Part shown: positions 29,151 through 63,847 of the stretch, piece after piece
Layout of the letters: each line of letters opens with the position of its first letter
Numbering within the stretch: the stretch's first letter is position 1
Assembly: GCA_902610815.1 (NCBI GenBank)
Contig: CACLXG010000001.1
Coordinates: forward strand, 76,775-140,774
Length of the DNA stretch: 64,000 nucleotides
Direction of reading: 5' to 3'
DNA from: an uncultured Candidatus Actinomarina sp.
GTDB lineage: Bacteria > Actinomycetota > Acidimicrobiia > Actinomarinales > Actinomarinaceae
Translations under genes and position numbers: made by a program
Notes under the pieces: generated by a model
Seen by the model: only the letters and a program-made list of their open reading frames with translations
Told to the model about the DNA's origin: nothing
Database searches by the model: none

Positions 29151-29519
29151 ATGGAGTTTTATTTTTTAGAATTACCTTCTTATATAAGCCTTGTTATTTG
29201 TGGTTTTGTAGGGTTGATATTTTTGGCAATTCATTTTTCCAAATTTGAACTGTCTTTTAATTTTTCAAACAAATTAATCCTGCTGTCTTGTTCTACTGTG
29301 CTCTTACAAGTTTTAGTGGTTATTTACTATACACAAAACAATGAAATAGGCTCATTCAGCCTATTTTATAATATTGTTAATCTTTTCATTTTGACATTTC
29401 TTTATATTTACAGAAACGAAATGAAAGTGAATTATCATCTTTATTGGTCATTTGCATTACTCTTTTTGATGGGTATGGAAATCAGAGCAATTCAGACAAT
29501 TGGGCAAGGACTTAGCTAA
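29151..29519 (+). CDS. Small polytopic membrane protein (about 4 TM), first gene of the operon
   Basis: 122 aa, hydrophobic; its stop overlaps the next ATG (TAATG). Confidence 0.4.
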   Translation: MEFYFLELPSYISLVICGFVGLIFLAIHFSKFELSFNFSNKLILLSCSTVLLQVLVVIYYTQNNEIGSFSLFYNIVNLFILTFLYIYRNEMKVNYHLYWSFALLFLMGMEIRAIQTIGQGLS

Positions 29520-30226
29520 TGGCGTATAAAATATTGAATGATGACTTAACATTTGCCAATGTAAATTCAGAGAATCCTAAAGTGTGTTTCTTACATGGAT
29601 GGGGTACAAGCGGTAAAGATTTTAACAAGATTGAAACGCACTTTGATTTTATAACTATTGATATACCTGGATTTGGCAAGTCTGTACCATTTACAAAAAG
29701 TTTTTCACCAAGAAGCTATGCTGAGTACCTTATTAAATTAATACCAGAATCAGTTGATGTTATTGTTGGCCATTCTTTTGGAGGAAGAATAGCAGTACAC
29801 CTTTCACAAATGCAAAATTACAGAAAAATAGTGATTATTGCATCACCACTTATTAGAAAATTAAAACCGAACAGTGGTTTTTCTGTTTTTAAATTATATA
29901 AATTTATTAATAAATTAAATATTATTAGTGACAGTAGGCTTGATGAATTAAAAAATAAATATGGTTCTGAAGATTATAGAAATGCTAACAAAGTTTTAAA
30001 AGATACATTAGTTATGGCAGTGAATGATGATTTGACTGAAATTCTTCCAAAAATCTCTACAAAAGTTGAACTTATTTATGGACAAGATGATTTGGTGGTA
30101 CCTGTAAAAGTTGGTATCGACTCAAGCAGTATAATTCGTGATTCTGAATTAACGATAATTCCTGACGAAGGTCACAATATGCTTAGAAGCAGTGCAGAAA
30201 AAATAGTGGAAATTATAAAAAGATGA
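29519..30226 (+). CDS. Alpha/beta-hydrolase-fold esterase
   Basis: HGWG oxyanion motif, nucleophile elbow GHSFGG, C-terminal DEGHN. Confidence 0.7.
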   Translation: MAYKILNDDLTFANVNSENPKVCFLHGWGTSGKDFNKIETHFDFITIDIPGFGKSVPFTKSFSPRSYAEYLIKLIPESVDVIVGHSFGGRIAVHLSQMQNYRKIVIIASPLIRKLKPNSGFSVFKLYKFINKLNIISDSRLDELKNKYGSEDYRNANKVLKDTLVMAVNDDLTEILPKISTKVELIYGQDDLVVPVKVGIDSSSIIRDSELTIIPDEGHNMLRSSAEKIVEIIKR

Positions 30227-31746
30227 ATTTACTTTATATATTTGTTTTAATTTTGCTCACTTTGAGTTCATGCTTGAATTCAATAAGGTGGGGAAGAATT
30301 GCTCAAAGAGAACATTATATCTCGGGATATGTCACTAAATTTTATTTCAGATGGGTTAGGTTAGTCCCATTTAATAATCTTTATTTTTTTCTTGCTGTCA
30401 TCCTGGCTTTATTAAGTTTATGGTCACCATACCCAGCATTATTACTATCAGTCTTAACTCTAGTAACACCATTTGGATTAGATTTTAAATACAGAACAAC
30501 CAAAGTGAACCTAACGGAAAGGCTTAAAAGGCTAAATATAATATATTACATTCTTATAGTTTTGATTTCCATTGTATCTTTAACAATGGATTTAGGTTAC
30601 TTTATTGCCTTAGTTGCTAATTTATTTTCTTTTTATGTCTATGACCAAGCTCTAAGGTTTACAAAGGGTTATGAAAAAAATAAATCCGAAAAATTTATTA
30701 TTGATGCAGAAAATGAATTAAAAAAGTTTGATGGCCCAATAATTGCAATTACTGGTTCATACTCAAAAACTACAACTAAAAATATATTGTCTCAGATTCT
30801 TTCTCAAAAAAATAAAACTTTTGTAACACCAGAAAGTTTTAATAATCGTTTAGGTATAGCAAAAGCAATCAATGAAAATCTAAAAAATGATGACGAAATT
30901 TCAATTATTGAAATGGGCACTTATGGTTTTGGAGAGATCAGAGAAATGTGTTCATGGGTCAGACCTCACATATCAGTAATAACAGGAATAGCACCAGTTC
31001 ACCTTGAAAGAATGAAAACTTTGGAAAATATACTTGATGCAAAGTCTGAAATAGTCGACTTAACTGGTTCTGTAGTTATCAATGGTGATGATCCACTTTT
31101 GTTGAATCAAGCAAGACTTTGGACTGCCCAGAAGATGGTTATAGATTGCTCTACGACTTCTGAAAGAGCTGCAGTTTTTGTAGACTACAAAAATAAATTA
31201 CATAGTGTTTACATTGGAGGAGAGTTTATAGGTAATGTTGAAGGCCCTAAAATCCTACAATTATCTATATCCTTATCAGTTGGAGTTATGGTTGCACTAG
31301 AACTTAATGTTAAATCTTATCTTGAAAGTCTTGGTGAGTTAGAAAAAACTGATCATCGTCAAACTATTCTTCAGGGAAGTATGGGTCAAACAATTATAGA
31401 TAATTCATTTAATTCGAATCCTATTTCATTTATTTCTTCGCTTGAAACATTAGAAGATTTTAATGGTGCTGGTAAAAAGTATCTTATAACTCCTGGAATG
31501 GTCGAGCTAGGTTCTGAACAATTTAGTTATAATTATGAATTTGCTCATTATGCAAGTGAAGTTGTTGATGAAGCACTTATCGTTGGTTACACCAACAAGG
31601 GACCATTAATACTTGCATTTGAGGAAAATAACATTCCAGTAAAATATTTTAAAAATAGAGATTTAGCTGTTTCTTATCTAAACTCTGTTGTGAATGAAAA
31701 TGATATTGTATTATTTGAAAACGATTTACCAGATCATCATCCTTAA
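30223..31746 (+). CDS. Membrane-anchored Mur-ligase-family enzyme (MurF/CapB-like central and C-domains; UDP-binding N-domain replaced by about 4 TM helices)
   Basis: Residues 1-140 are hydrophobic helices, followed by PIIAITGSYSKTTTKNIL (P-loop) and the Mur ligase middle and C domains. ATGA overlap with the upstream gene. Confidence 0.65.
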   Translation: MNLLYIFVLILLTLSSCLNSIRWGRIAQREHYISGYVTKFYFRWVRLVPFNNLYFFLAVILALLSLWSPYPALLLSVLTLVTPFGLDFKYRTTKVNLTERLKRLNIIYYILIVLISIVSLTMDLGYFIALVANLFSFYVYDQALRFTKGYEKNKSEKFIIDAENELKKFDGPIIAITGSYSKTTTKNILSQILSQKNKTFVTPESFNNRLGIAKAINENLKNDDEISIIEMGTYGFGEIREMCSWVRPHISVITGIAPVHLERMKTLENILDAKSEIVDLTGSVVINGDDPLLLNQARLWTAQKMVIDCSTTSERAAVFVDYKNKLHSVYIGGEFIGNVEGPKILQLSISLSVGVMVALELNVKSYLESLGELEKTDHRQTILQGSMGQTIIDNSFNSNPISFISSLETLEDFNGAGKKYLITPGMVELGSEQFSYNYEFAHYASEVVDEALIVGYTNKGPLILAFEENNIPVKYFKNRDLAVSYLNSVVNENDIVLFENDLPDHHP

Positions 31747-31749
31747 AAT

Positions 31750-32832
31750 ATGACAGAATCAATTGCCGTAATATTTGGTGGCCCATCTGACGAGCATGAT
31801 ATATCTATATTGACTGGGCTACAGTCTTCCAGGATTTTATCCAATAAATATGATGTAAAAAATATTTATTGGTCAAAAGACAATAAATGGTATTTGGTAA
31901 ATAATGCCTTAGAATCAATAGATTTTGTTGATAATGACGATATTTTCAAGAAAGAATTAACGATAAAATATGATTCAGAGCCAGGATTTTATTTAAAAAA
32001 GAAAAAAATTTCATTTGAAGTAGCAGTTAATGCTTGTCATGGAGGGCCAGGGGAAGATGGAACACTTCAAAGTTTATTAAGTTTATTAAATATTAATTAT
32101 ACAGGACCCTCATTGACTACTTCACAGATAGGTATGGATAAGTACGTTTTCTTTACATTAATGAAAGAAATTGGAATACCTGTTTTAGATAAACACTTAG
32201 TTAGCAAAAATACTAAACCTAATTTTTCTGGACCTTATATTTTAAAACCTAGATTTGGAGGGTCCTCTATCGGGGTAGAGGTTGTTGAAGACTACGAAAC
32301 AGCTTTAAAACTCTCTAGAAATTCAAAAATTTACAGTCAAGGAGCAACTGTAGAAAAATTACTTGAAAACTCTAACGATCTTCTTATTGGAATTAGGACA
32401 TACCCAAACTTAGATTTCTCAGAAATTGAAAAACCAATTAGAACAAGTAGTTTTGAATTGTTTTCATACAACGATAAATATCTTGATAATGGAGGATTAG
32501 AAGGATCTAAAAGAGAATTACCTGCAACTATTAATTCAGAAATTGAATCTCAAATTAAAACAATACTTACATTATTCGTTGAAAAAATTGAAATAAGAGG
32601 AATATCAAGAGTAGATTTTTTACTTCACAGTGAAAATTTATATTTAAATGAAGTTAATACAATTCCTGGAAGCCATGCATTATATCTTTGGCAGAATATT
32701 GGTAAAAGTAAGTTTGAACTTTTAAATGACATGATAGAAGAGGCAAAAAATAGTGTTACCCATTGGAGCACAGAGGGATCAGATGGAGTAGCTTTAAAAA
32801 GCGCTAAAGACATACAAAGCAAATTAGGTTAA
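31750..32832 (+). CDS. ddl: D-alanine--D-alanine ligase-like ATP-grasp enzyme
   Basis: N-terminal IAVIFGGPSDEHDISILTG and C-terminal VDFLL...YLNEVNTIPG match Ddl. Confidence 0.75.
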   Translation: MTESIAVIFGGPSDEHDISILTGLQSSRILSNKYDVKNIYWSKDNKWYLVNNALESIDFVDNDDIFKKELTIKYDSEPGFYLKKKKISFEVAVNACHGGPGEDGTLQSLLSLLNINYTGPSLTTSQIGMDKYVFFTLMKEIGIPVLDKHLVSKNTKPNFSGPYILKPRFGGSSIGVEVVEDYETALKLSRNSKIYSQGATVEKLLENSNDLLIGIRTYPNLDFSEIEKPIRTSSFELFSYNDKYLDNGGLEGSKRELPATINSEIESQIKTILTLFVEKIEIRGISRVDFLLHSENLYLNEVNTIPGSHALYLWQNIGKSKFELLNDMIEEAKNSVTHWSTEGSDGVALKSAKDIQSKLG

Positions 32833-32838
32833 AAATTT

Positions 32839-33474
32839 ATGAACGGTATTTATTGGGACTGTGATGGCACTTTAATGGATACCGAAACATCATATGGATT
32901 AGCATGGAAAGAACATCTGAGTGATTTTGGACTTGAGATATCTGAAGAGGAAACTAGACAATGGGTGGGTATTGACGATAGATTGGTTCACAGCTTTTAT
33001 GCAAAAAATGTTGATTTAGAAAATTTTGAGAAAACTATGGCATCTCTTGGAAAAATTATAGAAGGGACGTTGAACGAAAAACTAATGTTTCAAGATGCAA
33101 AAATACTACTCGAGGAGACAAACAACAGGGGATGGACGTCAGCATGTGCCTCAGCAAGCCCTTATGAGTTATTAAAAAATAAATTAATAAAAGCAAATAT
33201 TTTTGATTATTTCTCATATGTTATAGGAGGTGATCAAGTTGAAAGAAATAAACCATATCCAGATATTTACAATAAAGCGATCAGTGAACTTCAAACTACT
33301 AAGAATATAGTTATTGAAGACAGTCCTCCTGGAATATCATCTGGGAAGGCATCCGGTTCTTTTGTAGTTGCAATTGATAGAGGAATATTTTCAAAAGATG
33401 AATTAAATAAAGCTGACTTAATTGTTGATAATTTATCTATAGATATCATAGAAACAGTTTTTAATAGCCTTTAA
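32839..33474 (+). CDS. HAD-superfamily phosphatase (beta-phosphoglucomutase-like subfamily IA)
   Basis: Motif I DCDGTLMDTE; 211 aa. Confidence 0.7.
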   Translation: MNGIYWDCDGTLMDTETSYGLAWKEHLSDFGLEISEEETRQWVGIDDRLVHSFYAKNVDLENFEKTMASLGKIIEGTLNEKLMFQDAKILLEETNNRGWTSACASASPYELLKNKLIKANIFDYFSYVIGGDQVERNKPYPDIYNKAISELQTTKNIVIEDSPPGISSGKASGSFVVAIDRGIFSKDELNKADLIVDNLSIDIIETVFNSL

Positions 33475-33527: not shown

Positions 33528-33977
33528 CTAAGACAAATTTAAAATTAATACAGGTATTTTTCGTTTTGTTCTTTGTTGGTAATTGGAATATCCACCTTTA
33601 TTCATGTAATCCATTTTTGACCACCAGTCTTCACGCTCTTCATCAAAGACTTCTTTAGCGACTGCAGTGTATTTCTTTCTTCCAATTTGAATTTCACATT
33701 TAGGGTTAGCTTTTAAATTATGATACCAGCCTGGATTAGTAGGACTTCCACCTTTAGATGCTACTAAACAAATTTCATTACCTTCTTTCATGAAAACAAG
33801 TACATTTTTTCTTAACAAATTAGTCTTAGCACCAGTTGAGAAAAGAATTAAACACGGTCTTCCCTGTAGAAATTTTCCTATTCTGCCATTTGAATAGATA
33901 TAAATATAATTGTGAAAAAACAAGAATGTAAAAATTAAATATCTTCTCATATATTTAACTTTATCTTTTTTCTCCAT
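33528..33977 (-). CDS. Deazaflavin-dependent nitroreductase-family protein (DDN / DUF385)
   Basis: VASKGGSPTNPGWYHNLKANP...YQQRTKRKIPVLIL matches the DDN family. The likely start is M10, overlapping the stop of the upstream photolyase-like gene. Confidence 0.7.
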   Translation of the reverse strand: MEKKDKVKYMRRYLIFTFLFFHNYIYIYSNGRIGKFLQGRPCLILFSTGAKTNLLRKNVLVFMKEGNEICLVASKGGSPTNPGWYHNLKANPKCEIQIGRKKYTAVAKEVFDEEREDWWSKMDYMNKGGYSNYQQRTKRKIPVLILNLS

Positions 33978-35146
33978 GAACTGAAACTTGTAGGGTAAAA
34001 ATTAATGGGATCTGCAAGTCGTAATGCCGGGAATTCTACAGATGGAATATTTCTTTCTGTAATTTTTTTGTATTTTGGTACTGGTGCAAATGTTGATGCA
34101 AAATTTTTATTTTGTAAATAATCATCTGGATTGGTTAAATGTACTTGCAGCTCCCTTTTGTTATTAATTTCTTTAAGGCAATCAAGTAAAAAATTAATTC
34201 TCTTTGTTGATAATTGCAATTTACTTAACAGCTTTATATCAAATATAAAAATTACTGGTAGTTCGTGATAATGAATCATTGCTGGATCATTGTCTCCGAT
34301 AGATTCACCTGTAATCCATACACAGGATGGTTTAGTACTATTATTTTCTCTTATGTTTTTTGGACCGAAAACTTTTTCTTCATCTATTTTAAAATCATTA
34401 TTTAATTTTTCAGAAATATTTGTTTGCGGCCATTCTTGAATTGGGCAGTCATATTTTAATTCACAATTATTACATAATTGGGGTGCTCTTTTTTCAACTT
34501 GGAATTTGGAAAATCCATATGGCTTTCCTGTTTGTGATCCCATGACCCAATGCCATCCTAACCTGTTTGCAAAACGAGACCCATCTAATAAATGTTGAAA
34601 CATATAGTCCTCATATTGATTCCAGTCGTTACCTACCCTTAAAGAATTATGAGATGCATACCACATTCTTGTCTGATTAACCATATAACCTGTTTTTTCC
34701 AATTCTTTTTCGATAGTTGATACACAATTCATATTTTTATAAATATCTGCATTCGATTGAGGTTTTTCTATTTTGTAATTTAGATATTTTCTTGATTTTT
34801 TACCAACTATTGCATATAAATGTCTTGCAAATTCTTGCCAAAGCAACTCATCTTGGAATTTAGTTCTATCTTTGTATTCAAATTTCTCAACTGCTTTCCA
34901 TACATCTGAAAGACTAAGTAAACCATGTCGTATATAGGGGGATAGATAAGATGAACCTCTGGAATCTTTGGGGTAAACGTTGTTTCTTTTCGTAGCATAC
35001 TTATTAATATTTAGCTGATTTAATGCATTATCTGCGTTTGATTGGCCACCAGACACAAATGGATAAGTGAAATCATCACAACAAAGGCCACTAAAATATT
35101 TTTGTATTATTTCTTTATTATCAAGTTGTAGATCAATTAAAGACAT
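33947..35146 (-). CDS. Photolyase/cryptochrome homologue with permuted domain order (FAD domain then alpha/beta antenna domain)
   Basis: N-terminal part carries SYLSPYIRHG, LLWQEFARHLY and RMWYASHNSLRVGNDW...GWHWVMG (FAD_binding_7-like). C-terminal part carries CVWITGESIGDNDPAM, LPVIFIFD and FYPTSFSSWRKK (photolyase N-domain-like). Confidence 0.7.
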   Translation of the reverse strand: MSLIDLQLDNKEIIQKYFSGLCCDDFTYPFVSGGQSNADNALNQLNINKYATKRNNVYPKDSRGSSYLSPYIRHGLLSLSDVWKAVEKFEYKDRTKFQDELLWQEFARHLYAIVGKKSRKYLNYKIEKPQSNADIYKNMNCVSTIEKELEKTGYMVNQTRMWYASHNSLRVGNDWNQYEDYMFQHLLDGSRFANRLGWHWVMGSQTGKPYGFSKFQVEKRAPQLCNNCELKYDCPIQEWPQTNISEKLNNDFKIDEEKVFGPKNIRENNSTKPSCVWITGESIGDNDPAMIHYHELPVIFIFDIKLLSKLQLSTKRINFLLDCLKEINNKRELQVHLTNPDDYLQNKNFASTFAPVPKYKKITERNIPSVEFPALRLADPINFYPTSFSSWRKKIKLNI

Positions 35147-55194: not shown

Positions 55195-56316
55195 ATGACA
55201 GAATTAACGAGAAAAATTAATGATTCCATCTTTGGAGCAGTTTCAACTGAAGAATTGTTAGCTACTGCTTTTGAAAAGAAAATAGATTACTTTGGCAACA
55301 ATATTACATATAGTCCTAAAGTTTTTATTCCACTAACAACAATGTGTAGAGACAATTGTGGATATTGTACATTTGTAAAATCTCCCAAAGAGGGTGGAAC
55401 TTATTTAAATCAAGAAGAGGTTCTCTCAATAGCAGAAGCTGGTAATGAAGCTGGTTGCTATGAAGCTTTGTTTACTTTAGGAGATAAGCCAGAGCTCAAA
55501 TGGGATTTTGCTTTAACCCAACTTAAAGAATTAGGCCATTCCTCAACACATGATTATTTAATTAGTTCGATGAAGGTTGTAAATGAGAAATTTAATCTTT
55601 TTCCTCACGCCAACCCTGGTTTAATGAGCAAAAAAGAGATAAAGGAGTTAAAAAATCACTCACCATCTGGTGGGATTATGATTGAGTCATTTTCAAAAAA
55701 AATATACGACAAGGGAAAAGCTCATTACAAAACAGATACTAAATATATTGATTTAAGGTTGGACACCCTTAACAATGCATTAGAAGAGAAATATCCATTC
55801 ACAACTGGATTACTTCTTGGTTTAACTTCAACAAAAGAAGAAATTGTGAATGATATATCTAATTTAATTGATTATGTTAAAAAGAACTCTGCAATTCAGG
55901 AATTAATATTACAAAATTTTAGAGCAAAGAAAAATACATTAATGAAGAATAGTTCTGAAATAACAAATGATTTATTTTTAAGAATCATTGCAACGACTAG
56001 AATTTATGCCCCTTCACATATATCTCTCCAAGTTCCACCAAATCTTTCACCGGACATAACAATATTTTTAAAAAGTGGCATTAATGATTTAGGTGGAATA
56101 TCTCCATTAACTATTGATTGGGTAAATCCAGATCATTTATGGCCAAATATAAATAAATTAAAATTAGATATTTCAAGTACAGATCAAGTCCTTAAAAAGA
56201 GGTTACCTGTTTATCCCGAATTTATAAAAAAAGAATGGTTAAATAGTAAAATTTTTGAAAAAGTTAATAATATTATTGATACAGATGGATATCCAAAAGA
56301 ACACAATGAACAATAA
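55195..56316 (+). CDS. cofG: FO synthase subunit 1 (7,8-didemethyl-8-hydroxy-5-deazariboflavin synthase, radical SAM)
   Basis: CRDNCGYCTF radical-SAM cluster motif. 373 aa. Confidence 0.8.
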   Translation: MTELTRKINDSIFGAVSTEELLATAFEKKIDYFGNNITYSPKVFIPLTTMCRDNCGYCTFVKSPKEGGTYLNQEEVLSIAEAGNEAGCYEALFTLGDKPELKWDFALTQLKELGHSSTHDYLISSMKVVNEKFNLFPHANPGLMSKKEIKELKNHSPSGGIMIESFSKKIYDKGKAHYKTDTKYIDLRLDTLNNALEEKYPFTTGLLLGLTSTKEEIVNDISNLIDYVKKNSAIQELILQNFRAKKNTLMKNSSEITNDLFLRIIATTRIYAPSHISLQVPPNLSPDITIFLKSGINDLGGISPLTIDWVNPDHLWPNINKLKLDISSTDQVLKKRLPVYPEFIKKEWLNSKIFEKVNNIIDTDGYPKEHNEQ

Positions 56317-58141
56317 CATTTCTTTTCTTCGAATCAGACCATGTGATAACGACAATGAAATATATTTAAATTCAAGAAAAAAAGAGGGAACTTCTGCATT
56401 CTTAATAAAAAGTGATGTGTCAGTAAATACAGATAATTTACATAATAAAGATTTTCAAACAGTATCAAAGGATATCACCATAAATTCAGACGCATGGATT
56501 GTTACTGATGAAAACTGGAAGAAATTTAAATCTGTTCATCCAAAAAGATTGATTTACATTTTTAAAAATAATATTGAAATCGCATTAGAAGTTATCGATA
56601 GACTAAAGCCACACACTATTTTAATTTCTACTAATTCAGATTTACAATTCCTTAAATCTATCAACTCAAAAACAAGTTTTATAACATCGACATATGTTGA
56701 AACAATTGAGGAAGCAATTGAATTTGCTAATGCAGGAGTTTCAGATTTACTCCTCAGGGACTGGAGTTCCGAACAGATATTAGAACTTCAAAATCTAGAA
56801 GGACTAAATTTCTATGAACGAACTTTACTTTCTCCAGTATTTTCTATTGATGAAGCAAGAGAAGAATTTGATAAAGAAAGATTTTTTAGATTCTTAAAAA
56901 CTAGAAATATCCGAGGTTTTAGAAGAGAAGAGACAAGTTGGTTTCCTGGTAGTGGAAAAAATATTCCAAATTTAAATAATTTTGTCTTTAACAACAAAAG
57001 CCAAATTAACCATTCTGAATTTGACTCAATATTGAAAAGGGTATTAGATGGATATCAAATTAATAATGATGATCTGAAAGTATTGTTTAATACCGCAGGA
57101 GAAAAAATAAATGATATTGCAAATGTTGCTAATGAGTTAAATTTTTTAAAAAACGGAAATAATGTTTCTTATGTAAAGAATAGAAATATTAATTATACAA
57201 ATCAATGCTATTACAAATGTGGTTTCTGTGGATTTTCTAAAGGTCCTAATAGTTTAAATTTAAAAGAAAAACCATACAGCATTGATATACAAGAAGTAGT
57301 TGAAAGAACTGTCGAAGCATATGAAATGGGTGCATCAGAAGTGTGTTTACAAGGCGGCATTCATCCTGACTATACGGGAGAGTTTTATTTAAAGATGGTA
57401 GAAGATATAAAAGCTTCTGTTCCGGAAATGCATATTCACGGTTTCACTCCTTTAGAAATTTGGCAAGGAGCAGAGACTATTGGTTTGAATGTTGAAGAGT
57501 ACTTAAGTCTGTTAAAAAAAGCTGGGCTAAACACACTCCCCGGTACTGCAGCTGAAATATTAGACGATAGAGTTAGAAAATATCTTTGCCCTGATAAAAT
57601 AACTTCTTCACAATGGGCATATGTCATGGAAGTAGCTCATAACTTAGGGATAAAATCTACAGCAACAATTATGTTTGGTCATATTGATGATATAGATTCA
57701 TGGGTTAATCATTTTTCATTAATTAAAAATGTTCAAAGCAAAACAAATGGATTTACTGAAGTTGTACCTCTTCCTTTTGTTCATATGGGTTCTCCTATTT
57801 ACTTACAAGGTAAAAGTATGCCAGGACCTACTTGGGATGAGGTAGTTCTTATTCACTCATTAGCACGAATTTATTTTGTAAATTCAATAGACAACATTCA
57901 AGCAAGCTGGGTGAAATTGGGTCATGATGGAGCAGGGAAACTACTTCATGCTGGTGTTAATGATTTAGGTGGTACTTTGATCAATGAAAACATTAGCAGA
58001 GCTTCAGGAGCAGATCATGGGCAAGAAACAACTGAAGATCAATTTATTCAAATAATTGAGTCTGAAAATAAAAATCCAATTTTGAGAAATACTCTATATA
58101 CAAAATTCACTGAAACAAAAAATACTTTAGAAAAAAGATGA
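56306..58141 (+). CDS. cofH: FO synthase subunit 2 (radical SAM) with a ~230-aa N-terminal extension
   Basis: ATG at 56306 overlaps the cofG TAA by 11 nt. The CofH-like region with CYYKCGFCGF starts at about residue 235. The preceding region is uncharacterised. Confidence 0.7.
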   Translation: MNNNISFLRIRPCDNDNEIYLNSRKKEGTSAFLIKSDVSVNTDNLHNKDFQTVSKDITINSDAWIVTDENWKKFKSVHPKRLIYIFKNNIEIALEVIDRLKPHTILISTNSDLQFLKSINSKTSFITSTYVETIEEAIEFANAGVSDLLLRDWSSEQILELQNLEGLNFYERTLLSPVFSIDEAREEFDKERFFRFLKTRNIRGFRREETSWFPGSGKNIPNLNNFVFNNKSQINHSEFDSILKRVLDGYQINNDDLKVLFNTAGEKINDIANVANELNFLKNGNNVSYVKNRNINYTNQCYYKCGFCGFSKGPNSLNLKEKPYSIDIQEVVERTVEAYEMGASEVCLQGGIHPDYTGEFYLKMVEDIKASVPEMHIHGFTPLEIWQGAETIGLNVEEYLSLLKKAGLNTLPGTAAEILDDRVRKYLCPDKITSSQWAYVMEVAHNLGIKSTATIMFGHIDDIDSWVNHFSLIKNVQSKTNGFTEVVPLPFVHMGSPIYLQGKSMPGPTWDEVVLIHSLARIYFVNSIDNIQASWVKLGHDGAGKLLHAGVNDLGGTLINENISRASGADHGQETTEDQFIQIIESENKNPILRNTLYTKFTETKNTLEKR

Positions 58142-62247: not shown

Positions 62248-63003
62248 ATGAAAATAAAAAATCTACTTAAACCAGATAATTGGTGGATTCTTATTCTAAG
62301 TGGAGTTATAGCTTATATGCTATTCATGATCTATTCGGAACCTGAATACAACAAAGCTTTTAATTTTATACTTCCTGGACTTACAATTACTTTTCTTTCA
62401 ACTTTTATATCATTCATAATTGCTTTGTTTCTTGGATTAATTTCTGGAATTGGAAGGATATCTAAAAATAAATTTGCACGTACAATTTCAAGAACATACA
62501 TCGAATTTATACGTGGAGTTCCCGTTCTTATACTTATATTTACAATTGCTTTCGTAGTGGTCGTTAGAGCTGCTGAATTTTTTAACATTAATAATGGTAA
62601 TGTGCCAATGTTGGTTAGAGCAATAATTGCACTTTCAGTATTTTACGGTGCATATATAGCAGAAGTATTTAGAGCTGGAATTGAATCTGTTCCTGTAGGT
62701 CAAAGAGAGGGTGGTGCATCACTAGGTCTATCTGATAGACAAGTAATGAGACATATAGTTTTGCCTCAAGCTTTTCGTAATATGCTTCCTGCACTCGGAA
62801 ATGATTTTATTTCTATGATGAAAGATTCCTCACTGTTATCAGTATTAGCAGTAGAAGACCTAACCTATAGAGGCAGATTGTATTCAGGAAGTACATTTAG
62901 GTTTGCAGAAACTTATCTTGTTCTTACTGTTATGTATTTAATTATTACACTCATCCTTTCTGGATTACAAAGAAGACTTGAGAAAAGACTTGAAGCTAGA
63001 TAA
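62248..63003 (+). CDS. Polar amino-acid ABC transporter permease
   Basis: Probable ATG at 62248 (MKIKNLLKPDNWW...). The ORF-track start at 62221 lies inside the hairpin. The EAA-like region GASLGLSDRQVMRHIVLPQA is present. Confidence 0.7.
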   Translation: MKIKNLLKPDNWWILILSGVIAYMLFMIYSEPEYNKAFNFILPGLTITFLSTFISFIIALFLGLISGIGRISKNKFARTISRTYIEFIRGVPVLILIFTIAFVVVVRAAEFFNINNGNVPMLVRAIIALSVFYGAYIAEVFRAGIESVPVGQREGGASLGLSDRQVMRHIVLPQAFRNMLPALGNDFISMMKDSSLLSVLAVEDLTYRGRLYSGSTFRFAETYLVLTVMYLIITLILSGLQRRLEKRLEAR

Positions 63004-63847
63004 TAGAAGCAATCAAGAAGAAATTCTAAATCAATATTTAAATACACTTGAAAAAATTAAAAATTATTCGCAAAACACAATTAAGTCATACAAAAATGAC
63101 ATTACTCAGTATTTGAATGAAGAGAACAATCTTGGAGAATTTTCAAATTTTTTAAAAATCTGTTCTAAAAAAAATTACTCAAAATCTACTATTAACAGAA
63201 AAATTACATCTATTAGGTCTTTTTTGTTTTGGAGTGCAGAAAATGATTATTTTGAAAGAGATTTAATAAAACCGGTTACAAGTTTAAAAACAGATAAAAA
63301 ACTTCCAAATGTCTTAACAGCAAATTATATTAATGAACTACTTGATTCTTTACCTGTAAGTAACAATAAAGAGATAAGAGACAAAGCCATATTAGAACTA
63401 ATGTATTCTTCTGGTCTTCGAGTTAGTGAAGTTAGCAATCTTATGATTAAAGATATTAGAAGCAATAAATCTATTAAAGTTTTAGGGAAAGGAAGTAAGG
63501 AGAGAGTTTTACCATTAACTGATCGTGCATTTAATAGTATTAATAACTATTTAAAAATTGCTAGAGAAATATTTGCTAATGAAAAATCTGGTCAATTTTT
63601 ATTTTTAGGTATAAGGGGCGGTAAATTAAGTGATAGAGAAATAAGAAGAATTGTAAAGCTAAGAGTTGGAACTTTTCCACACAGCTTAAGACACACTTTT
63701 GCAACACATCTTTTAGACGGGGGTGCAGATTTGCGAATAGTTCAGGAGCTACTTGGTCACAATGACCCAAATACAACACAGATATATACACATGTTTCAA
63801 AAAAACAATTGAAGAAAAAATACAAACAATCTCACCCAAGGGGTTGA
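62978..63847 (+). CDS. xerC: Tyrosine site-specific recombinase XerC/XerD
   Basis: C-terminal LRHTFATHLLDGGADLRIVQELLGH...Y. Housekeeping position upstream of rpsB. Exact start uncertain (TTG). Confidence 0.75.
   Translation: MRKDLKLDNRSNQEEILNQYLNTLEKIKNYSQNTIKSYKNDITQYLNEENNLGEFSNFLKICSKKNYSKSTINRKITSIRSFLFWSAENDYFERDLIKPVTSLKTDKKLPNVLTANYINELLDSLPVSNNKEIRDKAILELMYSSGLRVSEVSNLMIKDIRSNKSIKVLGKGSKERVLPLTDRAFNSINNYLKIAREIFANEKSGQFLFLGIRGGKLSDREIRRIVKLRVGTFPHSLRHTFATHLLDGGADLRIVQELLGHNDPNTTQIYTHVSKKQLKKKYKQSHPRG

Follow-up and report, generated by a model that had tools for sequence, protein, structure and literature searches.

What would a ligase of the MurF type, textbook-cytoplasmic and a long-standing antibiotic target, do as a membrane protein? 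The question is raised by a 64-kb stretch of DNA (the window) from Candidatus Actinomarina, a marine, low-GC lineage within the Acidimicrobiia, as the source names of near-identical proteins and loci indicate. It encodes a Mur ligase of the MurF type in which domain 1 has given way to a membrane domain (TM-MurF), flanked by the genes of an alpha/beta hydrolase (ABH) and of a D-alanine--D-alanine ligase-type ATP-grasp enzyme (Ddl). These three genes form the functional unit of the locus. The reading that we prefer, and that judging from the sequences stands about an even chance, is that TM-MurF is an auxiliary membrane-bound enzyme which adds D-Ala-D-Ala to peptidoglycan precursors, coupled to the hydrolase, and which has taken the position of murF in Poribacteria. 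The genes of the locus and the parts of TM-MurF, with lengths in amino acids (aa), are as follows:

29519-30226, plus strand: alpha/beta hydrolase (ABH), module gene 1, 235 aa; Pfam Abhydrolase_6 and Abhydrolase_1
30223-31746, plus strand: TM-MurF, MurF-type Mur ligase with a membrane domain for domain 1, 507 aa
30223-30732, plus strand: N-terminal membrane domain of TM-MurF, residues 1-170, five transmembrane (TM) helices
30748-30780, plus strand: P-loop of TM-MurF, ITGSYSKTTTK, residues 176-186, from the alignment
31711-31734, plus strand: C-terminal signature of TM-MurF, L-x-E-N-D-L-P-D, residues 497-504, from the family alignment
31750-32832, plus strand: D-alanine--D-alanine ligase-type ATP-grasp enzyme (Ddl), module gene 3, 360 aa; Pfam Dala_Dala_lig_N and Dala_Dala_lig_C
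29151-29519, plus strand: small membrane protein, 122 aa; no Pfam family
32839-33474, plus strand: HAD-IA phosphatase, 211 aa; Pfam HAD_2

The list of open reading frames (ORFs) in the window places all five genes on the plus strand, and direct reading of the DNA revealed, in order, a TAATG overlap of one nucleotide (nt), an ATGA overlap of 4 nt, a gap of 3 nt and a gap of 6 nt. Both the ORFs and their junctions are thus as the original prediction for this DNA had given them, and its domain content, namely a hydrolase with a GHSFGG motif, a Mur ligase, a Ddl and a HAD phosphatase, agrees with Pfam and NCBIfam.

The catalytic core of TM-MurF is MurF-like in sequence as well as in fold. Its best NCBIfam model is murF (TIGR01143; 179.4 bits, cut-off 288.6), whose positions 65-403 of 418 are matched by residues 162-498, and in Pfam it is recognised by Mur_ligase_M (PF08245; 93.9 bits, cut-off 24) and Mur_ligase_C (PF02875; 31.8 bits, cut-off 28.4). 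Together with the alignment, these matches support the earlier assignment to the Mur ligases, with the P-loop, the middle and the C-terminal domain of MurF, including the central domain, on whose match to Mur hidden Markov models (HMMs) that assignment had been made to depend. The murF model was the best match in every family member tested, with 164-263 bits across phyla, all below the cut-off. Far weaker NCBIfam matches were those to cyanophycin synthetase, at 33 bits, and to MurT, at 20 bits, and no PgsB/CapB model was among the 18 matches of TM-MurF at E <= 0.01. A sequence search of the PDB put MurF structures first (3zl8, 4cvk, 2am1, 1gg4), and when the AlphaFold2 model (mean predicted local distance difference test score, pLDDT, of 89.2) was compared with the PDB via Foldseek, the ten best matches were all MurF, over about 360 columns, with the proteins of Acinetobacter, Thermotoga, Pseudomonas and E. 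coli on top. A closer resemblance to CapB/PgsB or cyanophycin synthetase than to MurF, as had been proposed, is therefore abandoned.

At the residue level, the P-loop and the motifs E-x-G, HLE, A-K-x-E-I, DDxxNxNP and G-M-x-E-L-G align in register with E. coli MurF; P-loop, HLE and AK-x-E are invariant in 79 homologues. Within the P-loop, which aligns with LTGSSGKTSVK of E. coli MurF, the invariant residues are T177, G178, S179, K182, T183 and K186, and the lysine of AKxEI occupies what we take to be the carbamylated position known from other Mur ligases. The C-terminal L-x-E-N-D-L-P-D, opposite LVKGSRSA of E. coli MurF, is conserved to 93-98% in the 79 sequences; of the two peptide patterns with which the family was retrieved from genome contigs, one was based on this signature. 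Domain 1 of MurF is absent, because the TIGR01143 match starts at model position 65 and residues 1-161 match no model, with no match to PF01225 in Pfam. Since two defining features fail, namely domain 1 and the TIGR01143 cut-off, we file TM-MurF apart from the MurF family.

With the HMM match beginning at residue 162, the replacement of the domain that binds uridine diphosphate (UDP) by a membrane domain was confirmed; the membrane helices predicted for this part of the protein are present as well, but number five in the AlphaFold2 model rather than about four (residues 3-18, 49-64, 70-81, 99-121 and 127 to about 148). Two more, amphipathic helices lie on the cytoplasmic side at residues 20-29 and 36-47. 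The loops 19-48 and 82-103 hold six Lys or Arg each and the loops 65-69 and 122-126 none, which according to the positive-inside rule places the N-terminus outside and the C-terminus with the catalytic domains inside. That the N-terminal segment is a mis-called upstream ORF was ruled out by its conservation, as homologues with just 35-40% identity align with TM-MurF from residue 1. Residues 1-170, which are modelled with high confidence, are thus a true domain, and more than a simple anchor. Six residues, Q28, Y32, W44, T98, R100 and E151, are conserved to 97-100% over the 79 members from four phyla, and the conserved polar residues are predicted by the model to face the cytoplasmic membrane surface, beside the active-site region of the ligase. 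G149 of the window protein stands at the site of a Pro conserved at 94% in the 79-member family.

A scan of one genome per species with the peptide patterns yielded 80 loci, and gene contexts were read from the window and from stretches around each fetched locus. All 80 encode ligase homologues of about 490-570 aa with two to six predicted hydrophobic helices before the P-loop. The ORF immediately before the TM-ligase is ABH in 73 of the 80 loci, and the one immediately after it is Ddl in 63; an all-against-all comparison of their flanking ORFs found just these two families conserved across phyla. The module is present in Actinomycetota, Poribacteria, Bacteroidota and Bacillota, with hosts among the Acidimicrobiia, Nocardioides, Microbacteriaceae, Frankiales, Propionibacteriaceae, Poribacteria, Bacteroidales, Clostridia, Tissierellia and Bacilli. 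The five-gene block, put forward earlier as the unit whose co-occurrence should be followed across genomes, has to be reduced to three genes: its order is conserved within the Actinomarinales (L001, L082-L086), and beyond them the association is confined to ABH, TM-ligase and Ddl. The HAD gene, found after Ddl in these Actinomarinales loci alone (0 of the other 79 genome loci), lies outside the unit, as does, probably, the 122-aa protein, which has homologues in 11 of the 80 loci, all from Acidimicrobiia or unclassified metagenome-assembled genomes with the same synteny. Being conserved only in a narrow lineage, both are regarded as lineage-specific neighbours. Four apparent ABH-TM-MurF fusions suggested by a profile search (P0189, P0239, P0259, P0267) were rejected, as at residue level they resemble frameshifted high-GC gene calls. 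No TM-type ligase was found in the PLSDB plasmids. A full-text literature search returned neither a transmembrane MurF nor the three-gene module, and a paper on MurE-MurF architecture, dealing with natural fused Mur proteins and dcw gene order, describes no transmembrane MurF and no hydrolase partner; within the literature searched, the module is undescribed.

Both partners of the ligase keep their catalytic residues. The triad of ABH, namely S86 (in GHSFGG), D191 and H219, and a family-specific G-S150-x-D152-Y153 motif are both conserved to 97-100% in 74 homologues. ABH is predicted to be cytoplasmic, without signal peptide or TM segment; its best NCBIfam matches are lipase- or esterase-like, for example EstV and BioH, and a sequence search of the PDB gave generic BioH-like esterases only. 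In 33 of 69 loci the ABH stop codon and the ligase start share 4 nt, and in 65 of them the two are no more than 30 nt apart, which speaks for translational coupling. The window Ddl matches PF01820 (82.9 bits), PF07478 (78.4 bits) and TIGR01205 (197.2 bits, under the cut-off of 245.65). It keeps the equivalents of E15, S150, K215, Y216, R255, D257, E270, N272, G276 and L282 of DdlB, that is, every catalytic and specificity residue scored apart from the Ser281 position, and among the 61 module Ddl proteins at least 59 keep those from E15 to N272; the equivalent of Tyr216 marks D-Ala-D-Ala and D-Ala-D-Ser ligases. The original prediction of a genuine Ddl-type ATP-grasp partner, with specificity residues to be scored, is supported by these residues. 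With scores of 258-300 bits, the corresponding proteins from Poribacteria, Muribaculaceae, Clostridia and Gracilibacillus lie above the curated cut-offs.

A second, short DdlB-type gene adjoins the module in four high-GC Actinomycetota loci (L019:5914-7101; L031:10767-11723, minus strand; L032:6341-7294; L036:9547-10536, minus strand), where the longer, more divergent Ddl after TM-MurF is also present. The DdlB-type gene of L019 is above the curated Ddl cut-off, and the module-type Ddl of the window, L005 and L031 is below it.

The tie to peptidoglycan precursor synthesis comes from Poribacteria. In four genomes (L034, L039, L040, L044), NCBIfam matches above cut-off and BLAST against E. coli dcw proteins revealed the order rsmH-ftsL-ftsI-murE-ABH-TM-murF-ddl-mraY-murD-ftsW-murG (for example L039:4900-11658), so that the module fills the murF slot, and no canonical murF was found in the Poribacteria dcw stretches read. 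This position argues for a peptidoglycan precursor as acceptor over an unrelated polymer. The earlier statement that the locus is not in a division or cell-wall context therefore holds for the window, where BLAST with the E. coli dcw proteins found no dcw gene in 64 kb, but fails for these four genomes, with the module between murE and mraY. In L039, an IS5-family transposase lies just upstream of rsmH.

Natural variation points to an auxiliary role in Actinomarina itself. In one sister population, represented by metagenome contigs with 98.3-100% nucleotide identity (L082-L084 and L089-L097), TM-MurF carries several different inactivating mutations: a TAT to TAG change at Tyr180 in the P-loop in at least five samples (window codon 30760-30762); one further sample has TGA instead of GGA at Gly175, and in a Global Ocean Sampling contig the reading frame shifts by +1 near codon 213. 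The remainder of the ligase gene is intact in these contigs, and the adjacent hydrolase and Ddl genes are undisturbed. The intact allele (P0062) has 845 member sequences versus 54 for a 278-aa restart product (P0102). These alleles suggest dispensability, recurrent selection for loss, or stop-codon read-through; several of them being independent, the ligase is probably dispensable in that population, a pattern unexpected for a sole, essential MurF. An accessory system, as originally predicted, is thus plausible in this lineage. The 278-aa proteins do not represent a conserved split gene or recoding, since P0104 and P0119 proved to be artefacts of assembly or frameshifting, and P0100 is a contig of 1 kb containing two stops; solid independent null alleles are confined to the P0102 population.

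Other hosts point the same way. In Gracilibacillus, the three genes stand isolated between nitrate-reductase/BioY genes and AraC/GH127 genes, and ligases of this family are frequent in Paenibacillus and in cultured Bacillaceae that are halophilic or alkaliphilic, groups that carry the canonical ddl-murF pair. The isolation in Gracilibacillus, the extra DdlB gene of some Actinomycetota and the null alleles favour an accessory role outside Poribacteria.

How might the module work? On the preferred reading, Ddl would supply D-Ala-D-Ala or a close analogue. TM-MurF, held in the cytoplasmic membrane by its five-helix domain with the ATP-binding and C-terminal domains in the cytoplasm, would activate the free carboxylate of a precursor of the N-acetylmuramic acid (MurNAc)-tripeptide type as an acyl phosphate and join the dipeptide to it at the inner membrane face. 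Recognition of a "handle" on the acceptor would fall to Q28, Y32, W44, T98, R100 and E151 in place of the UDP-binding domain 1. The translationally coupled ABH would most likely prepare or proof-read the acceptor, for instance through removal of an aberrant end of the stem peptide, and such trimming before re-addition of the dipeptide would explain why the three activities travel together. In Actinomarina this would be an auxiliary, non-essential route, coded beside the recG region, with a canonical murF presumably elsewhere in the genome; in Poribacteria the module would have taken over the murF position of the dcw operon.

Several points weigh against this reading. We know of no precedent for a serine hydrolase in D-Ala-D-Ala addition. 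ENDLPD in place of the KGSR of MurF could reflect a different incoming substrate or partner interface. The actinobacterial module Ddl proteins (window, L005, L031) reach 158-197 bits against a cut-off of 245.65, and the position of DdlB Ser281 is Tyr in 56 of the 61 module Ddl proteins, though at this site the alignment is uncertain; for both reasons, the dipeptide may be other than D-Ala-D-Ala. In addition, read-through of TAG or TGA could in principle rescue the null alleles.

A more specific form of the preferred reading concerns the acceptor and is put forward tentatively, with clearly less confidence than the general one: D-Ala-D-Ala would be added at the inner face of the membrane to the MurNAc-tripeptide of lipid I or II, carried on undecaprenyl pyrophosphate, after the hydrolase has trimmed damaged termini of the stem, so that stems that had entered the membrane steps lacking their D-Ala-D-Ala are completed or repaired by trimming and rebuilding, as an auxiliary route in most hosts and as a replacement of cytoplasmic MurF in Poribacteria. 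The missing UDP-binding domain and a replacement with conserved Arg, Gln, Tyr, Thr and Glu at the cytoplasmic surface would suit such an acceptor, as would the analogy with MurT, a Mur homologue generally known to act on lipid II without a UDP domain. The module directly adjoins mraY in Poribacteria, and the null alleles are in keeping with a function in repair, which the cell could do without. However, no structural relative of the membrane domain that binds polyprenyl phosphates was found, and if TM-MurF is the sole MurF of Poribacteria, MraY must there routinely use UDP-MurNAc-tripeptide.

It appears unlikely that the module is simply a housekeeping pair, that is, the sole MurF and Ddl of Actinomarina and of the Acidimicrobiia in general, in which the membrane domain merely tethers an ordinary UDP-MurNAc-tripeptide ligase near MraY. 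In favour of such a pair, redundant genes would not be expected in a streamlined genome of about 1.1 Mb (PMC7771536). The module fills the murF slot in Poribacteria, and these proteins are labelled MurF by the pipelines of the Joint Genome Institute (JGI), elsewhere "Mur ligase family protein". The Ddl gene also lies near recG-rsmD-coaD, the neighbourhood of ddlA in Mycobacterium. Against this stand the independent null alleles in natural Actinomarina contigs, one of them in at least five samples, and the occurrence of the module in Nocardioides, Microbacteriaceae and many Bacillaceae, groups generally known to have a canonical murF. Moreover, the conserved polar residues suggest that the membrane domain does more than tether the enzyme, and some Actinomycetota have the second, DdlB-type gene next to the module.

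Least probable of all is a non-peptidoglycan acceptor, the function offered in the original prediction, with the dipeptide transferred to some other membrane-embedded or polymeric carboxylate (a lipid, a teichoic-type polymer or an amino-acid polymer like that of CapB/CphA) and the esterase and phosphatase acting in tailoring: the absence of dcw genes from the window, the C-terminal ENDLPD, the divergent actinobacterial Ddl and the lipase- or esterase-like matches of the hydrolase would agree with it, but similarity to CapB/PgsB, CphA and MurT is negligible beside that to MurF, the module sits inside the dcw operon of four Poribacteria genomes, no polymerase, flippase or lipid-synthesis gene is conserved beside it in the 80 loci, and the HAD phosphatase is not conserved beyond the Actinomarinales.

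The remaining features of the window concern neighbours of the module. The membrane character of the 122-aa protein stands, while the count of four TM helices given for it is now three to four hydrophobic segments. Its gene abuts the ABH gene in Actinomarinales loci only (L001, L082, L085). Apart from Actinomarina L001, its homologues lie 1.6-5.6 kb from the TM-ligase gene, in most cases about 3.4 kb upstream, after a FadD-like gene; that of L022 is 1.6 kb upstream, with the ABH ORF as the next ORF, and that of L007 is downstream. The gene preceding the homologue in other Acidimicrobiia encodes a FadD-like AMP-binding enzyme (L005:1700-6793 and equivalents in L013, L014, L016 and L018); in L005 the homologue is followed by fabI, as scored, and an unannotated ORF of 381 aa, and the similar gene order of the other four is drawn from ORF clustering only. 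Loss or relocation of the genes of this FadD/fabI stretch in Actinomarina would have brought the small protein next to the hydrolase gene. The best NCBIfam match of the HAD protein is a model of the beta-phosphoglucomutase-family hydrolases.

Upstream of the five genes lie a class-III aminotransferase, an inositol-1-phosphate synthase and a PD-(D/E)XK nuclease; downstream follow an F420H2-dependent reductase of the DDN family, a photolyase-like gene, recG, rsmD and coaD. The flanks named earlier, with the aminotransferase on one side and the DDN and photolyase-like genes on the other, were thus correct. The reductase gene (33528-33977, minus strand) adjoins the module and, as called, overlaps the end of the photolyase-like ORF by 31 nt. 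An FbiC-like pair of radical-SAM genes of the CofG/CofH type lies 22 kb downstream of the module (55195-58141, plus strand), and together with the reductase it indicates that coenzyme F420 is probably made and used by the organism. The 399-aa product of the "photolyase" gene (33947-35146, minus strand) has a FAD_binding_7 match alone, and a weak one (35 bits, residues 98-208); rather than a standard photolyase, the protein may be a divergent relative of photolyases or cryptochromes. Both ends of the window hold sugar and amino-acid transport genes. At one end, a Xer-type tyrosine recombinase (Phage_integrase with an N-terminal SAM-like domain; 62978-63847, plus strand) directly follows genes of an amino-acid ATP-binding cassette (ABC) transporter and overlaps the permease gene as called. 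None of the five proteins matched a family in the PADLOC defence-system models, ARAGORN found no tRNA gene in the 64 kb, and no Rfam family reached its gathering score. A promoter scan gave 31 promoter-like sites versus 25 expected, which is uninformative in AT-rich DNA, as was the terminator scan.

An integral membrane protein of MurF type, lacking the nucleotide-binding domain and linked to a serine hydrolase, occurs in at least four phyla; its hosts include Bacteroidales and Clostridia of the gut, marine Actinobacteria of high abundance and cultured Bacillaceae. If the acceptor were lipid-linked, the accepted order of peptidoglycan steps would change and a quality-control step on lipid II would be revealed. 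If it were UDP-linked, TM-MurF would be a MurF isozyme with another substrate-recognition module, inhibitors directed at domain 1 or at the interfaces between domains might miss it, and it could contribute to tolerance. Given the mixed annotation, as MurF or as Mur ligase family protein, the MurF step may be mis-assigned in metabolic reconstructions of Acidimicrobiia and Poribacteria. The cell-wall structure of Actinomarinales is stated to be unknown in their genome paper (PMC7771536). The question is open to direct experiment in cultured hosts, among them Gracilibacillus, Evansella cellulosilytica, Paenibacillus and Nocardioides.

Among known systems, the vanHAX-associated accessory MurF of Actinomycetes is a paralogue encoded beside a D-Ala-D-X ligase, and no van-like genes were found in Actinomarinales (PMC8698665). 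An example is the best partial hit in PLSDB, L088 from the 1.27-Mb linear plasmid of Streptomyces sp. NBC_01591 (179801-192889), which has a canonical murF in divergent orientation beside vanH-vanO-vanX and a two-component system. Its product has domain 1, a KASRG end and no TM helices and is unrelated to the TM type, and the module, in contrast to van clusters, has no vanH, vanX, vanR or vanS.

PgsB/CapB and the Mur-like domain of cyanophycin synthetase share with TM-MurF a Mur-ligase fold without the UDP domain, and PgsB has an N-terminal membrane anchor. TM-MurF, however, lacks a match to their family models and PgsC/PgsA partners (no pgsC- or pgsA-type gene occurs in the window or the 80 loci), and it has a conserved five-helix domain instead of a single anchor. 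The cyanophycin synthetase models reach 26-33 bits against cut-offs of 850-877, with the match to TIGR02068 (33.3 bits) covering residues 239-349 only, and the ATP-grasp enzyme is here a separate Ddl-type protein rather than a fused domain.

MurT/GatD, the lipid II isoglutaminyl synthase, is a functional analogue, namely a Mur ligase at a membrane step: MurT has lost the UDP-binding N-domain, has its partner in the same operon and acts on a membrane-bound precursor. TM-MurF scores only 20 bits on the MurT model (cut-off 800), and MurT differs in having no TM helices, in its partner, a glutaminase and not a serine hydrolase, and in amidating its substrate rather than adding a dipeptide.

The closest relative is MurF itself (TIGR01143; 1GG4, 4QF5, 3ZL8, 4CVM). 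TM-MurF shares with it the central and C-terminal domains, the motifs, the fold, the pairing with Ddl and, in Poribacteria, the slot between murE and mraY, but it stays below the MurF cut-off, ends in ENDLPD instead of KGSR, has a hydrolase gene upstream and carries a five-helix membrane domain where MurF has domain 1.

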